From contig JASGHJ010000002.1 in assembly GCA_047602405.1 (NCBI GenBank), positions 1,056,001 through 1,120,000 on the forward strand: DNA of 64,000 bases, in the 5' to 3' direction. The notes beneath the pieces are model-generated. The model did not search any database. It was not told the origin of the DNA and saw only the letters and a list, made by a program, of their open reading frames with translations. Below are positions 1,568-37,751 of this stretch, in pieces (position 1 is the stretch's first letter; each line of letters begins with the position of its first letter). Both the position numbers and the translations under genes were made by a program. The stretch is from Anaeromyxobacteraceae bacterium (GTDB lineage: Bacteria > Myxococcota > Myxococcia > Myxococcales > Anaeromyxobacteraceae).

Positions 1568-1615
1568 GCGCCACGGACACCGGCTGCCAGGGAGCCCACG
1601 CTCGGGGCGAACGGG
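1568..1615 (+). repeat. Degenerate copy of ~50-bp palindromic REP-like element
   Basis: ...GGCTGCCAGGGAGCCCACGCTCGGGGCGAACGG matches the tail CCTACGCTCGGG(AT/GC)GAACGG of the copies at 24068-24270. Confidence 0.6.
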
Positions 1616-7957: not shown

Positions 7958-9347
7958 TTGGTCCGCGTCTTCAACCACTGGCTGTCGCCGCGCAAGGCGG
8001 CGTTCTTCTTCGCCGAGGAGATGGTCCTCGTCGTCGCGCTGCTCGCAGGCGCCTCGCTCGCGCCGGTCGCGGCCCAGGGCCCGGACGCGCCGCCGGTCGC
8101 GCCGGGCGCGCTCCGGGCGCTCGTCGCCTCGCTCTTCTTCGCCGGGGCGCTCTACCTCGGCGATCTCTACGACATGGGCGCCGCCGTCCGGGACCGGAAC
8201 GACGGCCGCCGGCTCCTGCGCGCGATCGGAGTCGCGGTCATCGCGCTCGCCGTGGCCGACGTCGCGCTCGACCTCTTCCTGCCGGGCTGGATGCTCCACC
8301 GCGGGCTCGTGCTCTCCGCCGCCGGCGGCGCGATTGGGGTGGTCGCCGTGCGGGCGCTCATGCCGGCGGTGGTGGGACCGCCGACCCGGGTGCTCTTCGT
8401 GGGCACCGGGCCGCGCGCCCGCGACCTCGCCCGGGCGATCGACCGGGACGCCGCGGGCCTCTACCGCTCCGCGGGCTTCGTGGCGATGCCGTCCGCGCGC
8501 CTGCCCTGGGCGGTCCCGGCCGAGGCCGTGCACCGGGGCGAGCTCGGCGAGGTGGCCCGCAGGGTGCGCGCCCACGTCATCGTCGTCGCCATGGAGGACC
8601 GCCGCGAGGGGTTCCCCGCGGAGGAGCTGCTCGTGCTGCGCACGACCGGCAGCCGCGTCGTCGACGACGTGGGGTTCGCCGAGGCGGCGCTGCAGCGCAT
8701 CCCGCTCGCGCTGGTCCGGCCGAGCGCGCTCATCTTCGACGAGGGCTTCCGCGTCTCGCGCGCCACCGCGGCCGCGAAGCGGATCCTCGACGTCGTGCTC
8801 TCGCTCGGGCTCCTCGTGGCCACCGCGCCGCTCGGGGCGGTGGTCGCGCTCGCGCTCTGGGCGACCGACGGCCGGCCGCTGCTCGACCTGCAGGAGCGCA
8901 CCGGCCGGGGGGGCCGCACCTACCGGATTCCGCAAGTTCCGCACGATGCGGCGGGACGCCGAGCGCCTGGGCGCGGCCTGGGCCACCCAGGACGACCCGC
9001 GCGTGCTCCCGCTCGGGCGCTTCCTGCGCCGCACGCGGCTCGACGAGCTGCCGCAGCTCTGGAACGTGCTCGCGGGCGACATGAGCCTCGTGGGGCCGCG
9101 GCCCGAGCGGCCGGTCTTCCTCGCGGAGATCAAGGCGCGCTGGCCGCTCTTCGGCCTGCGCGAGCTCGTGAAGCCCGGCCTCACCGGCTGGGCCCAGCTC
9201 AAGTTCGGCTACGGGTCGACGCTCGAGGAGCAGTCGAAGAAGCTCGAGTACGACCTCTACTACATCAAGAACGCGGGGCTCTTCCTCGACCTCGTCTGCC
9301 TGCTCGCGACCGCGAAGGTCGTGCTGCTCGGGAGGGGCGCGCGATGA
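7958..9347 (+). CDS. Polyprenyl-phosphate hexose-1-phosphate transferase (ExoE/WcaJ-like), +1 frameshift at ~8929
   Basis: TTG start MVRVFNHW; TM helices; KRILD in the first frame, then KFRTM..DDPRV..GRFLRRTRLDELPQLWNVLAGDMSLVGPRPE in the next frame; deleting one T from GATTC (8926-8930) joins them. Confidence 0.9.
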
Positions 9348-10381
9348 GCCCGGAGGTGGAGGTCGTCTCGCAGGAGCGGCGGCCGGAGCCGCCGCCGCGG
9401 CCGGCGCTCGCCGCGCCGCTGCGCGTGGTCGCGTTCGGGGGCGGCACCGGCCTGCCGCGCGTGCTCGCGGGCCTCCTCCGGCTCCGGCCCGCCGGCGGCG
9501 GGCCCACGCCCGGGGTGGGCGAGGAGGAGCTCACCGGCGGCCCGCCGCTCGCGATCACCGCGGTCGTCGCCGCCTCCGACGACGGCGGCAGCTCGGGCGC
9601 GCTCCGCCGGGCGTTCGGCGTGCCCGCGCCCGGCGACGCGCGGAACTGCCTCGTCGCGCTCGCGGGGCCAGGGAGCCCGCTCGCAGGGGTCTTCCAGCAC
9701 CGCTTCGAGGGCGAGGCGGGGCTCGCGGGGCACCCGGTGGGCAACCTCGTCCTCACCGCGCTGGCGCAGCGGCTGGGCGACTTCGGGGCCGCGGTCGACG
9801 CCGCGGCGGCGCTGCTCGGCGCCCGGGGGCGGGTGGTCCCCGCGACGCATGCGCCGGCCGCGCTCGTGGGCGAGCTCGCCGACGGCACGGAGGTCGCGGG
9901 CGAGTCCGCGCTCGCCGGGGCCGGGATCCCGGTGTCGCGGGTGCGGCTCGCGCGGGCCGCCGCGGCGCCGGCGGCGGTGCTGGAGGCGCTCGCCGAGGCC
10001 GACCTCGTCGTGCTCGGGCCGGGGAGCCTCTACTCGAGCGTCCTCGCGAGCGCGCTCGCGGACGGCGTCGCGCGGGCCCTCGCCGAGACGCCCGCGACGC
10101 GCGTGCTCGTCGTGAACCTCGCCTGCGAGCGCGGCGAGGCCGCGGGGCTCTCGCCCGCCGGGCACGTGCGCGCGGTGCTGCGGCACCTCGGCGACGCCGT
10201 CGACGTCGCGCTCCTCGACCGGAGCACGGTCGGCCCCGCGGAGCGCGCCGCCGTGGAGGCCCTCGGGGTGGTGCCGGTCACGGCCGAGCTGCTCCCCGAC
10301 GCGGCGGATCCCGCGCAGGCCGGGCTGCACGACCCCGCGAAGCTCGCCCGCGCGCTCCTCCGGCTCGCGCGGGTCAGGTGA
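9344..10381 (+). CDS. YvcK/gluconeogenesis-factor family protein (ExoF-like)
   Basis: GGGTGL, DDGGSSG, PGDARNCL, GHPVGNL, GPGSLYSS motifs; ATGA coupling to the upstream gene. Confidence 0.9.
   Translation: MSPEVEVVSQERRPEPPPRPALAAPLRVVAFGGGTGLPRVLAGLLRLRPAGGGPTPGVGEEELTGGPPLAITAVVAASDDGGSSGALRRAFGVPAPGDARNCLVALAGPGSPLAGVFQHRFEGEAGLAGHPVGNLVLTALAQRLGDFGAAVDAAAALLGARGRVVPATHAPAALVGELADGTEVAGESALAGAGIPVSRVRLARAAAAPAAVLEALAEADLVVLGPGSLYSSVLASALADGVARALAETPATRVLVVNLACERGEAAGLSPAGHVRAVLRHLGDAVDVALLDRSTVGPAERAAVEALGVVPVTAELLPDAADPAQAGLHDPAKLARALLRLARVR
9472..9521 (+). repeat. Degenerate REP-like element in frame within yvcK/exoF
   Basis: CTCCGGCCCGC-CGGCG-GCGGGCC-CACGCCCGGGGTGGGCG aligns to CTCCGGCCCGC-TGC-GCGGGCC-TACGCTCGGGATGAGCG. 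Confidence 0.65.
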
Positions 10382-24067: not shown

Positions 24068-24270
24068 GGCGTCCCTCGACTCCGGCCCGCTGCGCGGGCC
24101 TACGCTCGGGATGAACGGAGACCAGCAGTGATGGGAGGCCGTCCGGCAGGCGCCGGGCGGCCTCTTCTCTTTCGTCCGTTCGCCCCGAGCGTCGCCCGCG
24201 CGTCTCCCAGTTTCCCTCCGTTCGCCCCGAGCGTAGCCTCCGCGCAGCGGAGGCGGAGACGAGGGGCGCC
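24068..24270. repeat. Inverted pair of REP-like palindromic elements (REPIN-like) between convergent genes
   Basis: + copy 24068-24119 (stem GGCCCGC-TGC-GCGGGCC); - copy 24217-24270 (stem GCCTCCGC-TGC-GCGGAGGC); partial - copy 24175-24197. Confidence 0.85.
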
Positions 24271-26825
24271 TTACAGCTTCACCCGCCGCAGCCGCAGCGC
24301 GTTCGCGATCACCGTCACCGAGCTGAAGCTCATGGCCGCCGACGCGATCATCGGCGAGAGCACCACGCCGAAGAGCGGGTAGAGCGCCCCGCCCGCGAGC
24401 GGCACGCCGGCCGCGTTGTAGAAGAACGCCCAGAAGAGGTTCTGGCGGATGTTGCGCATCGTCGCGCGCGAGAGCCGCCGCGCGCGCACGAGCGCGGCGA
24501 GGTCGCCCCGCACGAGGGTGAGGCCGGCGGACTCGATGGCGACGTCGGCGCCCGTGCCCATGGCGACGCCGACGTCGGCGGCAGCGAGGGCGGGGGCGTC
24601 GTTGATGCCGTCGCCCGCGAAGGCCACCACCTCACCGCGGGCGCGGTGCTTCGCGACGACCTCGGCCTTGCGATCGGGGAGCACCTCCGCCTCGACCTCG
24701 TCGATCCCGAGCCTCGCCGCGACCGCGCGGGCGGTCGTCCAGCTGTCGCCGGTGACCATCGCGAGCTTCAGCCCCTCGGCGTGGAGCGCCTTCACGGCCT
24801 CCGCGGCGCCCGGGCGCAGCGGGTCCACGGCCTCGAGCGCGCCCGCCGGGCGGCCGTCGACGGCGACCAGCATCGCGGTGCCGCCGTCCTTCCGGAGCTC
24901 CTCGGCGCGGGCGGCGAGCGGCCCCGCCTCGATCCCGAGCTCGGCGAGGAGCGCCGCGTTGCCGAGGGCGACCTTGCGCCCGCCAACCGTGCCCGTGACG
25001 CCCTTCCCGGGGAACGCCTTGAAGCCGACCGCCTCCACGAGCGCGAGCCCGCGGGCCACGGCCCCCGCCACCACCGCACCCGCGAGCGGGTGCTCCGAGC
25101 CGCGCTCGAGGCTCGCCGCGAGCCGGAGCACCTCGTCCTCCGCGAGCCCGTCGAGCGCGACCACGCGGCCGAGCGCGGGCTTCCCGCGGGTGAGGGTGCC
25201 GGTCTTGTCCAGCAACAGGACGCCGACCTGCTCGAACCGCTCGAGCGCCTCCGCCGACTTCACAAGCACGCCCGCGGACGCGCCGCGCCCGGTCCCGACC
25301 ATGATCGCCATCGGCGTCGCGAGCCCGAGCGCGCAGGGACAGGCGATGATGAGCACCGCCACCGCCGCGACGAGCCCGTTCGCGAGCCGCGGCTCCGGCC
25401 CGAACAGCGCCCAGAGCGCGAAGGCGAGGGCGGCCGCGCCGACCACGCCCGGTACGAACCAGCCCGAGACCACGTCGGCGAGCCGCTGGATGGGCGCGCG
25501 GCTGCGCTGCGCGTCCATGACCATCCGGACGATCTTCGAGAGCAGCGTGTCGGCCCCGACGCGCTCGGCGCGCATGACGAGGGAGCCCGTGCCGACGAGC
25601 GTGCCGCCGGTGAGCTGTGCCCCCTCCGACTTCTCCACGGGCACGGGCTCGCCGGTCACCATCGACTCGTCCACCGGCGCGTGGCCCGAGACCACCGCGC
25701 CATCGACCGGGACCTGCTCGCCGGGGCGCACGCGGAGGAGGTCGCCGGGCTTCACCTCCTCGACGGGCACGTCGGCCTCGCTGCCGTCGGGGCGGACGAG
25801 GCGGGCGGTCTTCGGCGCGAGCTTGAGGAGCGCGCGGATGGCGCCGGACACGCGCGAGCGCGCGCGCAGCTCGAGCATCTGGCCGAAGCAGACGAGCTCG
25901 ACGATGACGGCCGCCGACTCGAAGTAGACCGGTGGCGCGCCGTGCTCGAGGAACGCGGGGGGAAAAGCTCCGCCGGGAGCAGCGTCGCCGCGGCAGAGAA
26001 GAGGAACGCCGCACCGGTCCCGATCCCGATGAGCGTGAACATGTTGAGCTTCCAGGTGAGGATCGACCGCCAGGCCCGCTCGAAGAACGGGCGGCCGCCC
26101 CAGAGCACCACCGGCGCCGCGAGCGCGAGCTGGAGCCACGCGAACGCGCGGAACCCGATGGCGTGGCGGATCGACATCCCGGTCGCCATGTCGCCCATCG
26201 CGACCGCGAGCAGCACGGCGGTCGGCGCGAGGCCGCGCCAGAACCGCCGGGTCATGTCGACGAGCTCGGGGTTCGGCGGCTCCTCGGCGGACGGCATGCC
26301 GCCGACCACGAGCGGCTCGAGCCCCATGCCGCAGGTGGGGCAGGGGACCGGCGTCTTCTCCTTCACCTCGGGGCACATCGGGCAGACCCACACGACGGTG
26401 CTTCCGGGGAGCTCGTCCCTCGACTCCGGCCCGCTGCGCGGGCCTACGCTCGGGATGAGCGGCCCCACCCCCGGCGGTTTCCAGCCCGGTCCGTGCTCGA
26501 GGTAGGGCTCCGGGGTCGCCTCGAACTTCGCGAGGCACTTCGGGTTGCAGAAGAACCAGGTCTTCCCGAGGAGCTCGAGCTGGCCGCCCTTCGGCGCCTT
26601 CGGGTTCACCTCCATCCCGCAGACGGGATCGATGGCGAAGTACTTCTCCGGCTCGGCCTCGAAGCGCGCGCGGCAGGCGTCGGAGCAGAAGTGGTACGCG
26701 TAGCGGCCGCGCTTGACGGTGCCGCCGGGCGGCGACGCGGGGTCGACGTCCATCCCGCAGACGGGGTCGCGGGTCGGCGGCGGCGGGGCGGCGGGGGCGG
26801 CGGCGGGCTGGGACGCGGTCTCCAT
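24271..26825 (-). CDS. copA: Cu(I)-type P1B-1 ATPase with 2 YHS + HMBD domains, -1 frameshift at ~25960
   Basis: DPVCGM..FCS/FCN twice, CPMCPE..CPTCGM, TGE, CPCALG, DKTGT, SEHP, GDGIND, YN, MSFSS; homopolymer at 25957-25962 one base short. Confidence 0.93.
26414..26462 (+). repeat. REP-like element in frame within the copA linker
   Basis: 48/49 identical to 24070-24118; read in copA as [17 protein letters not shown] between YHS2 and HMBD. Confidence 0.9.
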
Positions 26826-34312: not shown

Positions 34313-36631
34313 ATGGCCATCGGCCGCAGGCAGTTCATCCAGATCGGCGCCGGCGCCGCGGGCGTGGCGGGCGTCTCCGGGCTCTCGAGCCGCTGGTGGG
34401 GGCTCGACGGGGACCCCGTCCGCGACCCGGGCACCGAGGGCGATCACGTCGTCGCGACCTACTGCGAGCTCTGCTTCTGGGGCTGCGGGCAGCTCGCCCA
34501 CGTGAAGGACGGGCGCGTGACGAAGCTCGTCGGCAACCCGGCCCACCCGCTCTCGAACGGCGCGCTCTGCCCGCGCGGCGCGGGCGCGACCGGGCTCCTC
34601 TACGACCCCGATCGCCTGAAGAAGCCGCTCGTCCGCCGCGCCATGCGCGGCGAGGACGTGTTCGAGGAGGTCTCCTGGGACGCCGCGCTCAACGAGGTCT
34701 CCGAGCGCCTCCTCCAGGTGGCGAAGCGGCACGGCCCCGAGGCGGTCGCCCTCTTCACGCACGGCTCGGGTGGCGTGTGGTGGAAGACGTTCATGAAGGC
34801 CTGGGGGTCGCCCAACATCGGCGCCCCGTCCTACGCGCAGTGCCGCGGCCCGCGCGAGGCCGCCTTCACGGTGACCTTCGGCACGCCGCTCGGCTCGCCG
34901 GAGCCGCTCGACCTCGCGAACGCGCGGTGCATCACGCTCATCGGGTCGCACCTCGGCGAGAACATGCACAACACCCAGGTGCAGGAACTCGCCCAGGCCG
35001 TGGGCCGGGGCGCCGCCCTCGTGGTGGTGGACCCCCGCTTCAGCGTCGCGGCCTCGAAGGCGAAGCACTGGCTCCCGGTGAAGCCGGGCACCGACATCGC
35101 GCTCCTCCTCGCGTGGATGAACGTGCTCATCACCGAGAAGCTCTACGACGCCGAGTGGGTGAAGGAGCACGCGGTCGGCTTCGAGCAGCTCGCCGAGCAC
35201 GTGGCCGACAAGACACCGGAGTGGGCCCACCCGATCACGGGCCTCAGGCCCGAGCTCATCCGCGCCTCCGCCCGGACCCTCGGCGGCGCGCGGCCCGCGT
35301 CGCTGATCCATCCCGGCCGCCACACGGTCTGGTACGGCGACGACACGCAGCGCGGCCGCGCGATGGCGATCCTCGCCGCGCTGCTCGGCTCGTGGGGCCG
35401 CCGCGGCGGCTACGTCGCGACGGAGAAGTTCCCGCTCGCGCCGTACCCGCTGCCGGAGGGGCTGCCCCACCTCGTTTCCGGGGGGCTCGGCGCCCCCCGC
35501 CCCGCCGAGCAAGGCTCGTCGGGGCCCCACCCCGGCAGCACCGCGGCTGGCTGGACGCCGCGCCCGAAGGCCGACCTCCCGAAGGCGGGCGGCTACCCGC
35601 TCGCGACCGAGATCATCGCCTCCGGCCTCTGCGACGCGACCCGCCCCGGGCACGCGCTCTACGACCTCAAGGCCTGGATCGTCTACGGCTGCAACCTCGT
35701 CCAGGCCATGCCGGACCGCAAGCAACTCATCGAGACCATGCAGCACCTCGACTTCCTCGTCGCCGTCGACGTGCTGCCCTCCGAGATCGCCGGCTTCGCC
35801 GACGTGGTGCTGCCCGAGACCACCTACCTCGAGCGGCACGACGACCTCTCGGCGCCCGCCTGGAAGCGCCCGTTCGTGGCGCTCCGCCAGCCGGTGGTCG
35901 AGCCGATGTACGACGCGAAGCCGGGCTGGTGGATTGCGAAGGAGCTCGCGACCCGCACCGGGCTCGGCGCGTGGTTCCCGTGGAAGGACGCCGGCGAGTA
36001 CCTCGAGAAGCGGGTCACGGCGAAGGGGCTCGACTGGGAGAAGCTCCGGAAGGACGGCGTCCTCCTCGGCGCGCCCATCGCGACCTGCGAGGAGGAGGGG
36101 CTCCCGGTCTCGATCCCGACCGAGGACGGCAAGGCCCAGCTCTGGTCGAAGGAGCTCGCCGCGTTCGGCTTCGATCCGGTGCCGCAGTACGTGCCGCAGG
36201 AGGAGGCCCCGCAGGGCATGTTCCGCCTCCTCTCCGGGCGCGCGCCGACCCACACCTTCGGCCGCACGGTGAACAACCGGCTCCTCGCCGAGCCGTTCCC
36301 GGAGAACGAGGTCTGGATCAACGCCGCCGTGGCGGCGTCGCTGCCCGGCTTCGAGGAGAAGCCGCTCCGGGACGGCGACCGGGTGGTGCTCGTGAACCAG
36401 GACGGCATCCGATCGACGCCGGTCCGCGCGAAGGTCACCGAGCGCATCCGCGGCGACTGCGTGTTCATGGTCCACGGCTGGGGCCAGACCGCCAGGAAGC
36501 TCCGCTACGCCCACGGCAGGGGCGCCTCCGACTCGGCGCTGACGAGCCGCTACAAGGTGGACCCGATCATGGGCGGGACCGGGATGAGCGTGAACTTCGT
36601 GCGCCTCGAGCGCGCCGCCGAGGTGGCCTGA
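34313..36631 (+). CDS. psrA: Polysulfide/thiosulfate reductase-type molybdopterin catalytic subunit (PsrA/PhsA), Tat-exported
   Basis: GRRQFI Tat motif; CELC..GC...LCPRG (FS0); SYAQCRGPRE (Mo-ligand Cys); VDPRFS, KPGTDIA, WYGDD, ADVVLPETTYLER. Confidence 0.88.
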   Translation: MAIGRRQFIQIGAGAAGVAGVSGLSSRWWGLDGDPVRDPGTEGDHVVATYCELCFWGCGQLAHVKDGRVTKLVGNPAHPLSNGALCPRGAGATGLLYDPDRLKKPLVRRAMRGEDVFEEVSWDAALNEVSERLLQVAKRHGPEAVALFTHGSGGVWWKTFMKAWGSPNIGAPSYAQCRGPREAAFTVTFGTPLGSPEPLDLANARCITLIGSHLGENMHNTQVQELAQAVGRGAALVVVDPRFSVAASKAKHWLPVKPGTDIALLLAWMNVLITEKLYDAEWVKEHAVGFEQLAEHVADKTPEWAHPITGLRPELIRASARTLGGARPASLIHPGRHTVWYGDDTQRGRAMAILAALLGSWGRRGGYVATEKFPLAPYPLPEGLPHLVSGGLGAPRPAEQGSSGPHPGSTAAGWTPRPKADLPKAGGYPLATEIIASGLCDATRPGHALYDLKAWIVYGCNLVQAMPDRKQLIETMQHLDFLVAVDVLPSEIAGFADVVLPETTYLERHDDLSAPAWKRPFVALRQPVVEPMYDAKPGWWIAKELATRTGLGAWFPWKDAGEYLEKRVTAKGLDWEKLRKDGVLLGAPIATCEEEGLPVSIPTEDGKAQLWSKELAAFGFDPVPQYVPQEEAPQGMFRLLSGRAPTHTFGRTVNNRLLAEPFPENEVWINAAVAASLPGFEEKPLRDGDRVVLVNQDGIRSTPVRAKVTERIRGDCVFMVHGWGQTARKLRYAHGRGASDSALTSRYKVDPIMGGTGMSVNFVRLERAAEVA
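35479..35540. repeat. Double-hairpin element in frame within psrA loop
   Basis: CGGGGGGC-TCGGC-GCCCCCCG and GCCCCGCCGAGC-AAG-GCTCGTCGGGGC; rare codons (GTT, CAA, GCT) concentrated in and around it. Confidence 0.5.
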
Positions 36632-37182: not shown

Positions 37183-37751
37183 GCGAGGTCGTGATGGAAT
37201 CGACGAACTCCGTTGGCCCCGAGCCTCAGGGTGCCGTTCGCCCCGAGCCTGTCGAGCGGCCCTTCTGGAACCCCTATCTCGGCGGCGCCGCGCTCGGCCT
37301 CGTGCTCCTCACCGCGTACATGGTGATGGGCAAGGGCCTGGGCGCCTCCGGCGCCTCCTTCCGCCTCGGCGTCGCCGCCGTCTCGGTGTTCGCGCCGGGG
37401 CATGCCGCCACCGCGCCGGGCCTGAGGTCGGTGGCGGCCGCGCCCTTCGACGACTGGCTCGTCTTCGAGGTGCTCGGCGTCGTCCTCGGCGGCCTCGTGG
37501 GCGCGTACACCTCGGGGCGCCTCAGGCTCGAGGTGCTGCGCGGCCCGGCGATCTCCGTGGGCGCGCGCCTCGCGATGGCGCTCGGCGGCGGCCTCCTGAT
37601 GGGCTTCGCGGCGAAGCTCGCGCGCGGCTGCACCTCCGGCCAGGCGCTCTCCGGCGGCGCGATGCTCTCGGCGGGCTCCTGGGCCTTCATGATGATGGTC
37701 TTCGCGGGCGGCTACGCCTTCGCGTGGACGGTGAGGAGGGCCTGGCGATGA
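37179..37751 (+). CDS. YeeE/YedE sulfur-compound transporter family protein (half 1)
   Basis: WNPYLGG, GLGASG, GGLLMGFAAKLARGCTSG motif; ATGA coupling. Confidence 0.88.
   Translation: MSEVVMESTNSVGPEPQGAVRPEPVERPFWNPYLGGAALGLVLLTAYMVMGKGLGASGASFRLGVAAVSVFAPGHAATAPGLRSVAAAPFDDWLVFEVLGVVLGGLVGAYTSGRLRLEVLRGPAISVGARLAMALGGGLLMGFAAKLARGCTSGQALSGGAMLSAGSWAFMMMVFAGGYAFAWTVRRAWR
37210..37256 (-). repeat. Two partial REP-like ends in the yeeE N-terminal extension
   Basis: CCGTTGGCCCCGAGCCT and CCGTTCGCCCCGAGCCTGTCGAG match TCCGTTCGCCCCGAGC at 24175 and 24217. Confidence 0.7.

Follow-up and report, generated by a model that had tools for sequence, protein, structure and literature searches.

The hairpin repeat described here is probably what a small stand-alone GIY-YIG nuclease targets in single-stranded DNA; the enzyme likely spreads the repeat through a cut next to the hairpin, after which repair would patch a copy into a new site. 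The phenomenon is real and in part already explained, in that it is a variant of the Ssn-type nuclease–hairpin system that behaves like the palindromic elements of Rickettsia. What is new here is the long form of the repeat, the set of filled and empty alleles and the test of reading frame.

The window analysed is a 64-kb stretch of contig C2 in a host genome (G000) of 6.16 Mb and 74 per cent GC, and its copies of the repeat are collected in Table 1 together with the gene that hosts one of them. A preliminary description of this DNA had reported an inverted intergenic pair whose partner carries a different stem, and a 48/49-identical copy lying in frame in copA; the pair was confirmed, with scores of 46–51 bits across its members and the copA copy, and the position of the latter in the linker between the second YHS domain and the HMBD was confirmed by sequence identity and domain positions. 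A fourth, partial copy between the two members of the pair had been missed, as had a one-base frameshift in copA. Three further copies had been called degenerate, and taken alone they are weak (14, 11 and 4.6 bits), but they gain support from orthologues and from a close relative, G010 (6.0 Mb, of which 2.4 Mb were compared; 92–95 per cent identical around copA). The yvcK copy has an intact counterpart in G010, to which it is 87 per cent identical across 55 nt, and the yvcK product is 12 to 14 residues longer than all nine orthologues examined; the yeeE site in G010 holds an intact short form read as VRPEPVEG.

Table 1. Copies of the hairpin repeat in the 64-kb window, and the copA gene with its replaced segment (positions are those of the window).
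Feature	Position	Strand	Score or basis	Remarks
Half copy, intergenic	1582..1615	+	14.2 bits	Half copy in G010 too
Decayed long-form copy, in frame in yvcK/CofD-family gene (PF01933)	9472..9521	+	11 bits	
Long-form copy 1	24069..24119	+	50.5 bits	11 nt beyond the stop codon of a + strand gene lying upstream; absent there in G010
Partial copy, tag end only, between two full copies	24175..24194	-	9.7 bits	G010 has a related short-type copy here
Long-form copy 2, different apical stem, beside the copA stop codon	24217..24268	-	46.0 bits	G010 has a copy with another stem here
copA-type heavy-metal P-type ATPase gene hosting the insert	24271..26825	-	NCBIfam and Pfam	
Whole replaced segment, copA YHS-HMBD linker	26391..26470	-	G010 alignment	38 native bases replaced by 80, a gain of 14 codons
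Long-form copy in frame in copA	26413..26462	+ (peptide read on -)	47.1 bits	48/49 identical to copy 1
Decayed short-form copy, N-terminus of yeeE-like gene (PF04143)	37234..37256	+	4.6 bits	Further fragment before it from about 37206

Three other features of the window may be recorded. Some 700 bp between the stop codon of the first gene and the half repeat (839 to about 1560), with no clear open reading frame, are missing from G010. A sugar-transferase gene upstream of yvcK (about 8900–9000) apparently changes frame, as copA does, which fits indel errors in the assembly. An rRNA operon with two tRNA genes lies at 57175–62616.

The copA insert is read as a peptide of about 16–17 residues between the second YHS domain (residues 65–111) and the HMBD (145–171). 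The element is present in none of 15 orthologous linkers, and an empty allele with the same joint occurs in contigs from three of the four public runs; as judged from these alignments, the copA copy is a derived insertion. It had been considered that orthologues might carry the same peptides, and this was not seen in either CopA or YvcK. The linker is tolerant, because one orthologue carries an unrelated Gly/Met expansion of similar length. The outer parts of the replaced segment resemble, by eye, the ends of a second repeat family (treated below) whose profile does not score them.

Reading on from the insert, translation of copA meets a one-base shift after about 450 nt, in a G/A run near 25955–25966, and the gene is split there. 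The frame is intact in G010 and in contigs of all four public runs. Since one-base indels are common between the G000 and G010 assemblies (438 in 1.85 Mb), the shift is likely an assembly error, with a real pseudogene as the less likely reading.

Across the genome, a profile built from 206 distinct seed copies found 307 copies of the repeat at a threshold of E<0.01 and none in a 6-mer-shuffled genome; a loose regular expression gave heavy background, and the profile was used instead. The copies fall into 275 loci, 255 of which are singletons, and an Rfam search returned no family on the repeat. The unit is a hairpin of ∼50 bases, here called the long form, while a short form without the apical hairpin accounts for 20 further genomic copies under a strict pattern that matched 0–1 times in shuffled sequence. 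In the 265 of 307 copies that could be parsed, the tag strand runs through CCG, five bases, a stem, GAGC-GTAG, a variable hairpin, CGRAG-WCGA and the returning stem. The CCG tag is 95 per cent conserved at each position. The four outer stem pairs are Watson–Crick in 258, 261, 263 and 250 of the 265 copies, with both sides changing together, and the six apical pairs are held in 244–262 of them despite 160 different inner sequences. GTAG stands before the apical hairpin in 212 of the 265, and a C-GNA-G triloop caps the apical stem in 156. Almost every copy can be read through, with 294 of the 307 open in at least four of the six reading frames.

The GA/GA motif beside the stem is compatible with tandem sheared pairs. 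The working form of the repeat would be the tag strand folded as single-stranded DNA, comprising an unpaired CCG tag, a 4-bp stem, tandem G.A pairs, a variable apical stem and the C-GNA-G triloop. According to one study, DNA loops of the d(GNA) type have very high stability when a C:G pair closes them (PMC3201870).

Several unusual arrangements of the repeat were also observed. Seven copies form a tandem array with a 157-bp period (G000:C2:3676050-3677041), and nested forms exist, with a copy lodged in the loop of another, oppositely oriented one (G000:C1:60467, C1:720604, C1:787670 and others). One subfamily (G000, at C2:2830334, C2:3045683, C2:3332384, C1:1659353, C1:429858 and C2:657619) shares a common 3′ flank of up to 124 nt or more with mostly little 5′ flank, an asymmetry that hints at a fixed end on the tag side.

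The candidate partner of the repeat is a GIY-YIG gene of 102 residues (G000:C1:1892788-1893096, minus strand) that matches PF01541 only. Upstream of it are six tandem repeats, the nearest at 33 nt, and downstream an inverted copy at 9 nt with its partner further on, the CCG tags around the gene pointing outwards; no repeat copy lies within 1.5 kb of the other two of the three GIY-YIG matches in the genome. This protein has 18 high-scoring matches (E<1e-27) in 61 genomes drawn from the genus and order, distinct from a near-universal UPF0213-like paralogue. All 17 examined loci of the high-scoring type are flanked by the long, short or variant form (11 by profile, six by eye), and a profile match lies within 250 nt at none of 13 paralogue loci. 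A structural motif, defined after the flanks had been inspected and loose in GC-rich DNA (6/14 distant windows positive among the relatives), was found at 15 of the 17 nuclease loci, on both sides at 10, as against 4 of the 13 paralogue loci, on both sides at none.

The association extends well beyond the genus, and the earlier description of the element as myxobacterial is not supported: nucleases of this branch have related hairpins in their flanks in Pseudomonadota, Actinomycetota and Chloroflexota as well as in one Bacteroidetes record. In a set of GTDB homologues, biased by the search patterns and with the near-identical L080 excluded, this same structural motif (stem-GAG...HCGA-stem) lies within 250 nt at 77 of 79 loci, on both sides at 65 and mostly with the tag outward; controls gave 10 of 71 distant windows, and 7.4 loci were expected after shuffling. 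Within the genus, all 14 of the genomes with the gene (of 37) have at least 55 repeat matches, and 7 of the 23 without it have at least 50, a threshold that was set post hoc over related and hence non-independent genomes; the repeat-rich genomes without the gene include G015 and G023, both single-contig and 99–100 per cent complete. The form of the repeat beside the gene is also the dominant form in that genome, such that G005 has no long copies, 505 short ones and a short-flanked gene, and G000, G001, G010 and G033 are long-dominated with a long-flanked gene.

The protein has the conservation expected of its Ssn counterpart's catalytic site (see below): over 38 sequences Tyr7, Arg27 and His31 never vary, and conservation is at least 90 per cent at Tyr17 and Glu64. 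A structure modelled with an alignment (pLDDT 88.6) has UPF0213 proteins and Slx1 as its best matches. The gene occupies one common neighbourhood at 12 of 17 loci, so the nuclease cassette itself moves rarely, as would be expected of a domesticated, RAYT-like gene.

The repeats turn over rapidly. Of the 275 loci in G000, 65 have both flanks in compared G010 DNA, and 26 of these are shared and 39 empty; in the reverse comparison a position was found for 61 of the 75 loci of G010, of which 28 are shared and 33 empty. Some 60 per cent of orthologous repeat sites differ between two close relatives. The preliminary description had suggested a recently mobile element with copies of different ages, which the 39 empty sites support, and had named as counter-evidence only a few copies with no empty-site alleles, which is not the situation in a genome with 307 copies. 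Its expectation of clean insertions was not borne out, because target bases are replaced, both in copA (Table 1) and elsewhere. For the 30 of 40 parsed junctions that were kept (insert of at least 40 nt, target loss of up to 80 nt), the medians are 22 nt of target lost, with an additional 15 nt on one side and 12 nt on the other, figures read against a ∼93 per cent identical relative and open to blurring by later mutation or by loss instead of gain; the polarity of insertion is fixed for copA, yvcK, queA and ligA only. Target loss is zero in three of the 30 (0, 0 and −1 nt), and a duplication of more than 1 nt is found in none. The replacement of about 20 target bases with no target duplication suggests cut-and-patch over transposition. 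The exact ends and target-site duplication of a MITE are likewise not found, target being lost at 27 of the 30 junctions.

Such junctions are most likely produced as follows. The nuclease would bind the folded tag strand and, by analogy with SsnA, may cut just 5′ of the CCG tag, after which repair templated by another copy would patch the hairpin and some of its flank into the site, erasing about 20 target bases. We infer that copying would proceed via repair and not by strand transfer. Selection would then remove frame-breaking and core-breaking insertions, and in-gene copies would remain where the frame is kept.

Many of the empty alleles are unique coding sequence without a repeat (copA, purL, queA and pheS), leaving nothing to recombine with, and this bears on an alternative that we consider unlikely, namely that the nuclease cuts the repeat, for example in restricting incoming single-stranded DNA as SsnA does, while the repeat is spread by host recombination or gene conversion between its copies. 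Such an account could draw on the statement, in the accessible part of the Ssn report, that SsnA limits transformation by NTS-bearing DNA (PMC11893778), on the several ‘empty’ sites in G010 that hold another repeat and so have been reused, on the flank of at least 14 nt that 125 of 270 copies share with another copy, and on the repeat-rich genomes without the nuclease gene, but it sits poorly with the presence of repeats in 14 of 14 genomes that have the gene.

A sizeable share of the loci lie in frame within genes, and the tally of coding against intergenic copies that had been proposed as a check comes to 33–61 of 275: 33 by a strict test (both 120-nt flanks coding-like and the frame open), 57 by a crude gene caller, 61 in their union and 29 in their overlap. 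The hosts include ligA, purL, queA, pheS, dapF, ligD, uvrD and xseA, and the copies are read in both orientations and in several frames. Against solved structures QueA has about 28 and LigA about 32 extra residues; in the same comparison the insert in DapF was not clearly placed. The length difference between filled and empty alleles is divisible by three at 13 of the 14 in-gene sites, of which the two weakest (+3 and +15) may be decayed old copies, as compared with 18 of 58 other sites (P=3e-5), and the frame is therefore a selective filter, not a property of insertion. Together with the examples of copA, yvcK, queA and ligA, this supports the earlier proposal that the element adds peptides in frame to tolerant linkers, and the decorated proteins presumably stay functional. 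The UvrD/PcrA linker before the tudor domain carries a repeat in both genomes (G000:C1:1236151; G010 locus L250), as different variants in opposite orientations, which suggests, from the sequences, independent insertions at one tolerant spot.

Outside genes, 94 of 218 loci lie in convergent gaps, as against 304 of 2594 background gaps, and 19 of 218 in divergent gaps, as against 770 of 2594. This distribution is what could be expected if the repeat were retained chiefly for its action in RNA, as a terminator or stabiliser at the 3′ ends of genes, with the in-gene copies as tolerated accidents. We find that reading quite improbable: there is no strand preference between tandem genes (56 vs 41), the majority of orthologous sites differ between the two relatives, the conserved loop is a DNA-type triloop, and retention would be accounted for in this way but not origin. 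Very improbable, finally, is the mobilisation proposed in the preliminary description, in which a RAYT/IS200-type HUH enzyme copies the repeat in trans via the internal GTAG and hairpin, since the GTAG, frequent as it is, has an internal and not a terminal position and does not occur in the short form that flanks the same nuclease branch, and of six weak Y1_Tnp matches in the genome one has a single copy 621 nt away and none is bracketed by the repeat, the gene so bracketed being the small GIY-YIG one. Three near-identical Y1_Tnp-like genes (G000:C2:2524469, C1:2221901 and C2:3257262) were observed, and from their near-identity they are probably a recently active IS200/RAYT-like element unrelated to the repeat.

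Ssn is among the closest known systems. Its nuclease SsnA recognises single-stranded DNA through the NTS hairpin, of one strand only, cuts just upstream of that hairpin and requires Tyr6, Tyr17 and Glu64 (Chenal et al. 2025, PMC11893778). The available sections of that paper show cutting by SsnA and not spreading of its repeat, and its authors suggest, without a test, a domesticated mobile element (PMC11893778). As in Ssn (cd10448), a small single-domain GIY-YIG gene has on either side of it an oriented hairpin repeat whose 5′ tag is unpaired and which is present in hundreds of copies in the genome, and the equivalent catalytic residues of the single-domain Tyr/Tyr/Arg/Glu set are conserved (Y7, Y17, R27 and E64).

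By layout, then, the system works like Ssn, but it is not a member by clade or motif. The nuclease forms a separate protein branch nearer UPF0213: in a rough tree of 73 proteins, in which bootstrap had not settled and the Ssn outgroup was thin (a GIY-YIG gene was present at 2 of 80 NTS loci, with cd10448 represented by proxies), a long branch (1.89; 100/100) separates two NTS-adjacent proxies from the 57 repeat-flanked proteins, themselves weakly supported (70/80), which also stand apart from the housekeeping paralogues, and the proteins studied here do not group in a cd10448 clade. The repeat differs in its tandem G.A pairs and optional apical hairpin, and it is not an SRM, the consensus of which fits 24 of the 307 copies and has 72 matches genome-wide. 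Two Anaeromyxobacter rows (of four) in the accessible Ssn supplement give an apparent 0.67–0.78-fold SRM enrichment, and the accessible text places 2 per cent of NTS loci of N. meningitidis in genes (PMC11893778), whereas the figure here is 12–22 per cent.

Other palindromic repeats offer partial parallels. The CGTC-tagged REPs are, in the available text, short tagged palindromes near gene 3′ ends, some of them in frame in genes that include DNA ligase, helicases and tRNA synthetases, and they lack an adjoining tyrosine transposase (PMC3733652, Di Nocera et al. 2013), all of which resembles the present case. Their CGTC tag, 8–9 bp stem and 4–5 nt loop are unlike the CCG-YT tag and the bulged 4-bp stem with internal loop found here, and they are mostly head-to-head dimers, unlike our predominance of singletons; the repeat was not assigned to them on tag, stem or dimer form, and the available text names no myxobacterium and no GIY-YIG protein (PMC3733652). 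The palindromic elements of Rickettsia, as far as the accessible accounts describe them, share the frequent in-frame insertion into unrelated housekeeping genes (PMC10969869, PMC3733652), and repeated presence of this RPE-like kind, with absence from orthologues, is what we find; they are about 150 bp long, however, whereas the present repeat is about 50 bp, is read in both orientations and several frames, inhabits a free-living GC-rich host and has a candidate partner enzyme. In the REP/RAYT arrangement (REPtron), too, the repeat brackets the gene of its enzyme, which for the most part is inherited in place and at times is lost while the repeats persist, but here the bracketed enzyme is GIY-YIG and not an HUH tyrosine transposase. 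Assignment to REP/RAYT was rejected, as no HUH gene flanked by the repeat and no terminal unpaired GTAG was found.

How palindromic repeats spread in the absence of a RAYT was left open in 2013, in the part of that study available (PMC3733652). The nuclease–repeat pair, its fast turnover, dozens of filled and empty alleles and a defined strand make the question directly testable. If the proposed role is true, the candidate ssDNA-specific nucleases gain a further branch whose target is a different one. The repeat also shows Rickettsia-style, frame-filtered decoration of proteins in a free-living bacterium. A bolder proposal, about which we are more doubtful than convinced, is that this second, cross-phylum branch of stand-alone GIY-YIG proteins may be the missing mobiliser of non-GTAG palindromic repeats, acting by cut-and-patch with neither transposase nor target duplication, and that in this genus it may generate new peptide loops in core enzymes (DNA ligase, PurL, QueA, PheS and CopA). 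A literature search, which covered few subscription papers, found no publication on this GIY-YIG branch or its repeat beyond the papers cited.

A second repeat family of ∼70 bp was encountered in the same genome. It starts with GCTGCCGGGGTGGGG, contains an inner hairpin and ends with GAGCCCCCCG; it has 86 matches, against none in shuffled sequence, and lies in the window at 35472–35540 on the minus strand. No partner gene was seen at the three clusters examined. The first repeat occurs within the 45 nt following the left motif of the second family at 9 of 49 sites. The two families also replace each other between the genomes at several orthologous sites, each genome carrying a different one.
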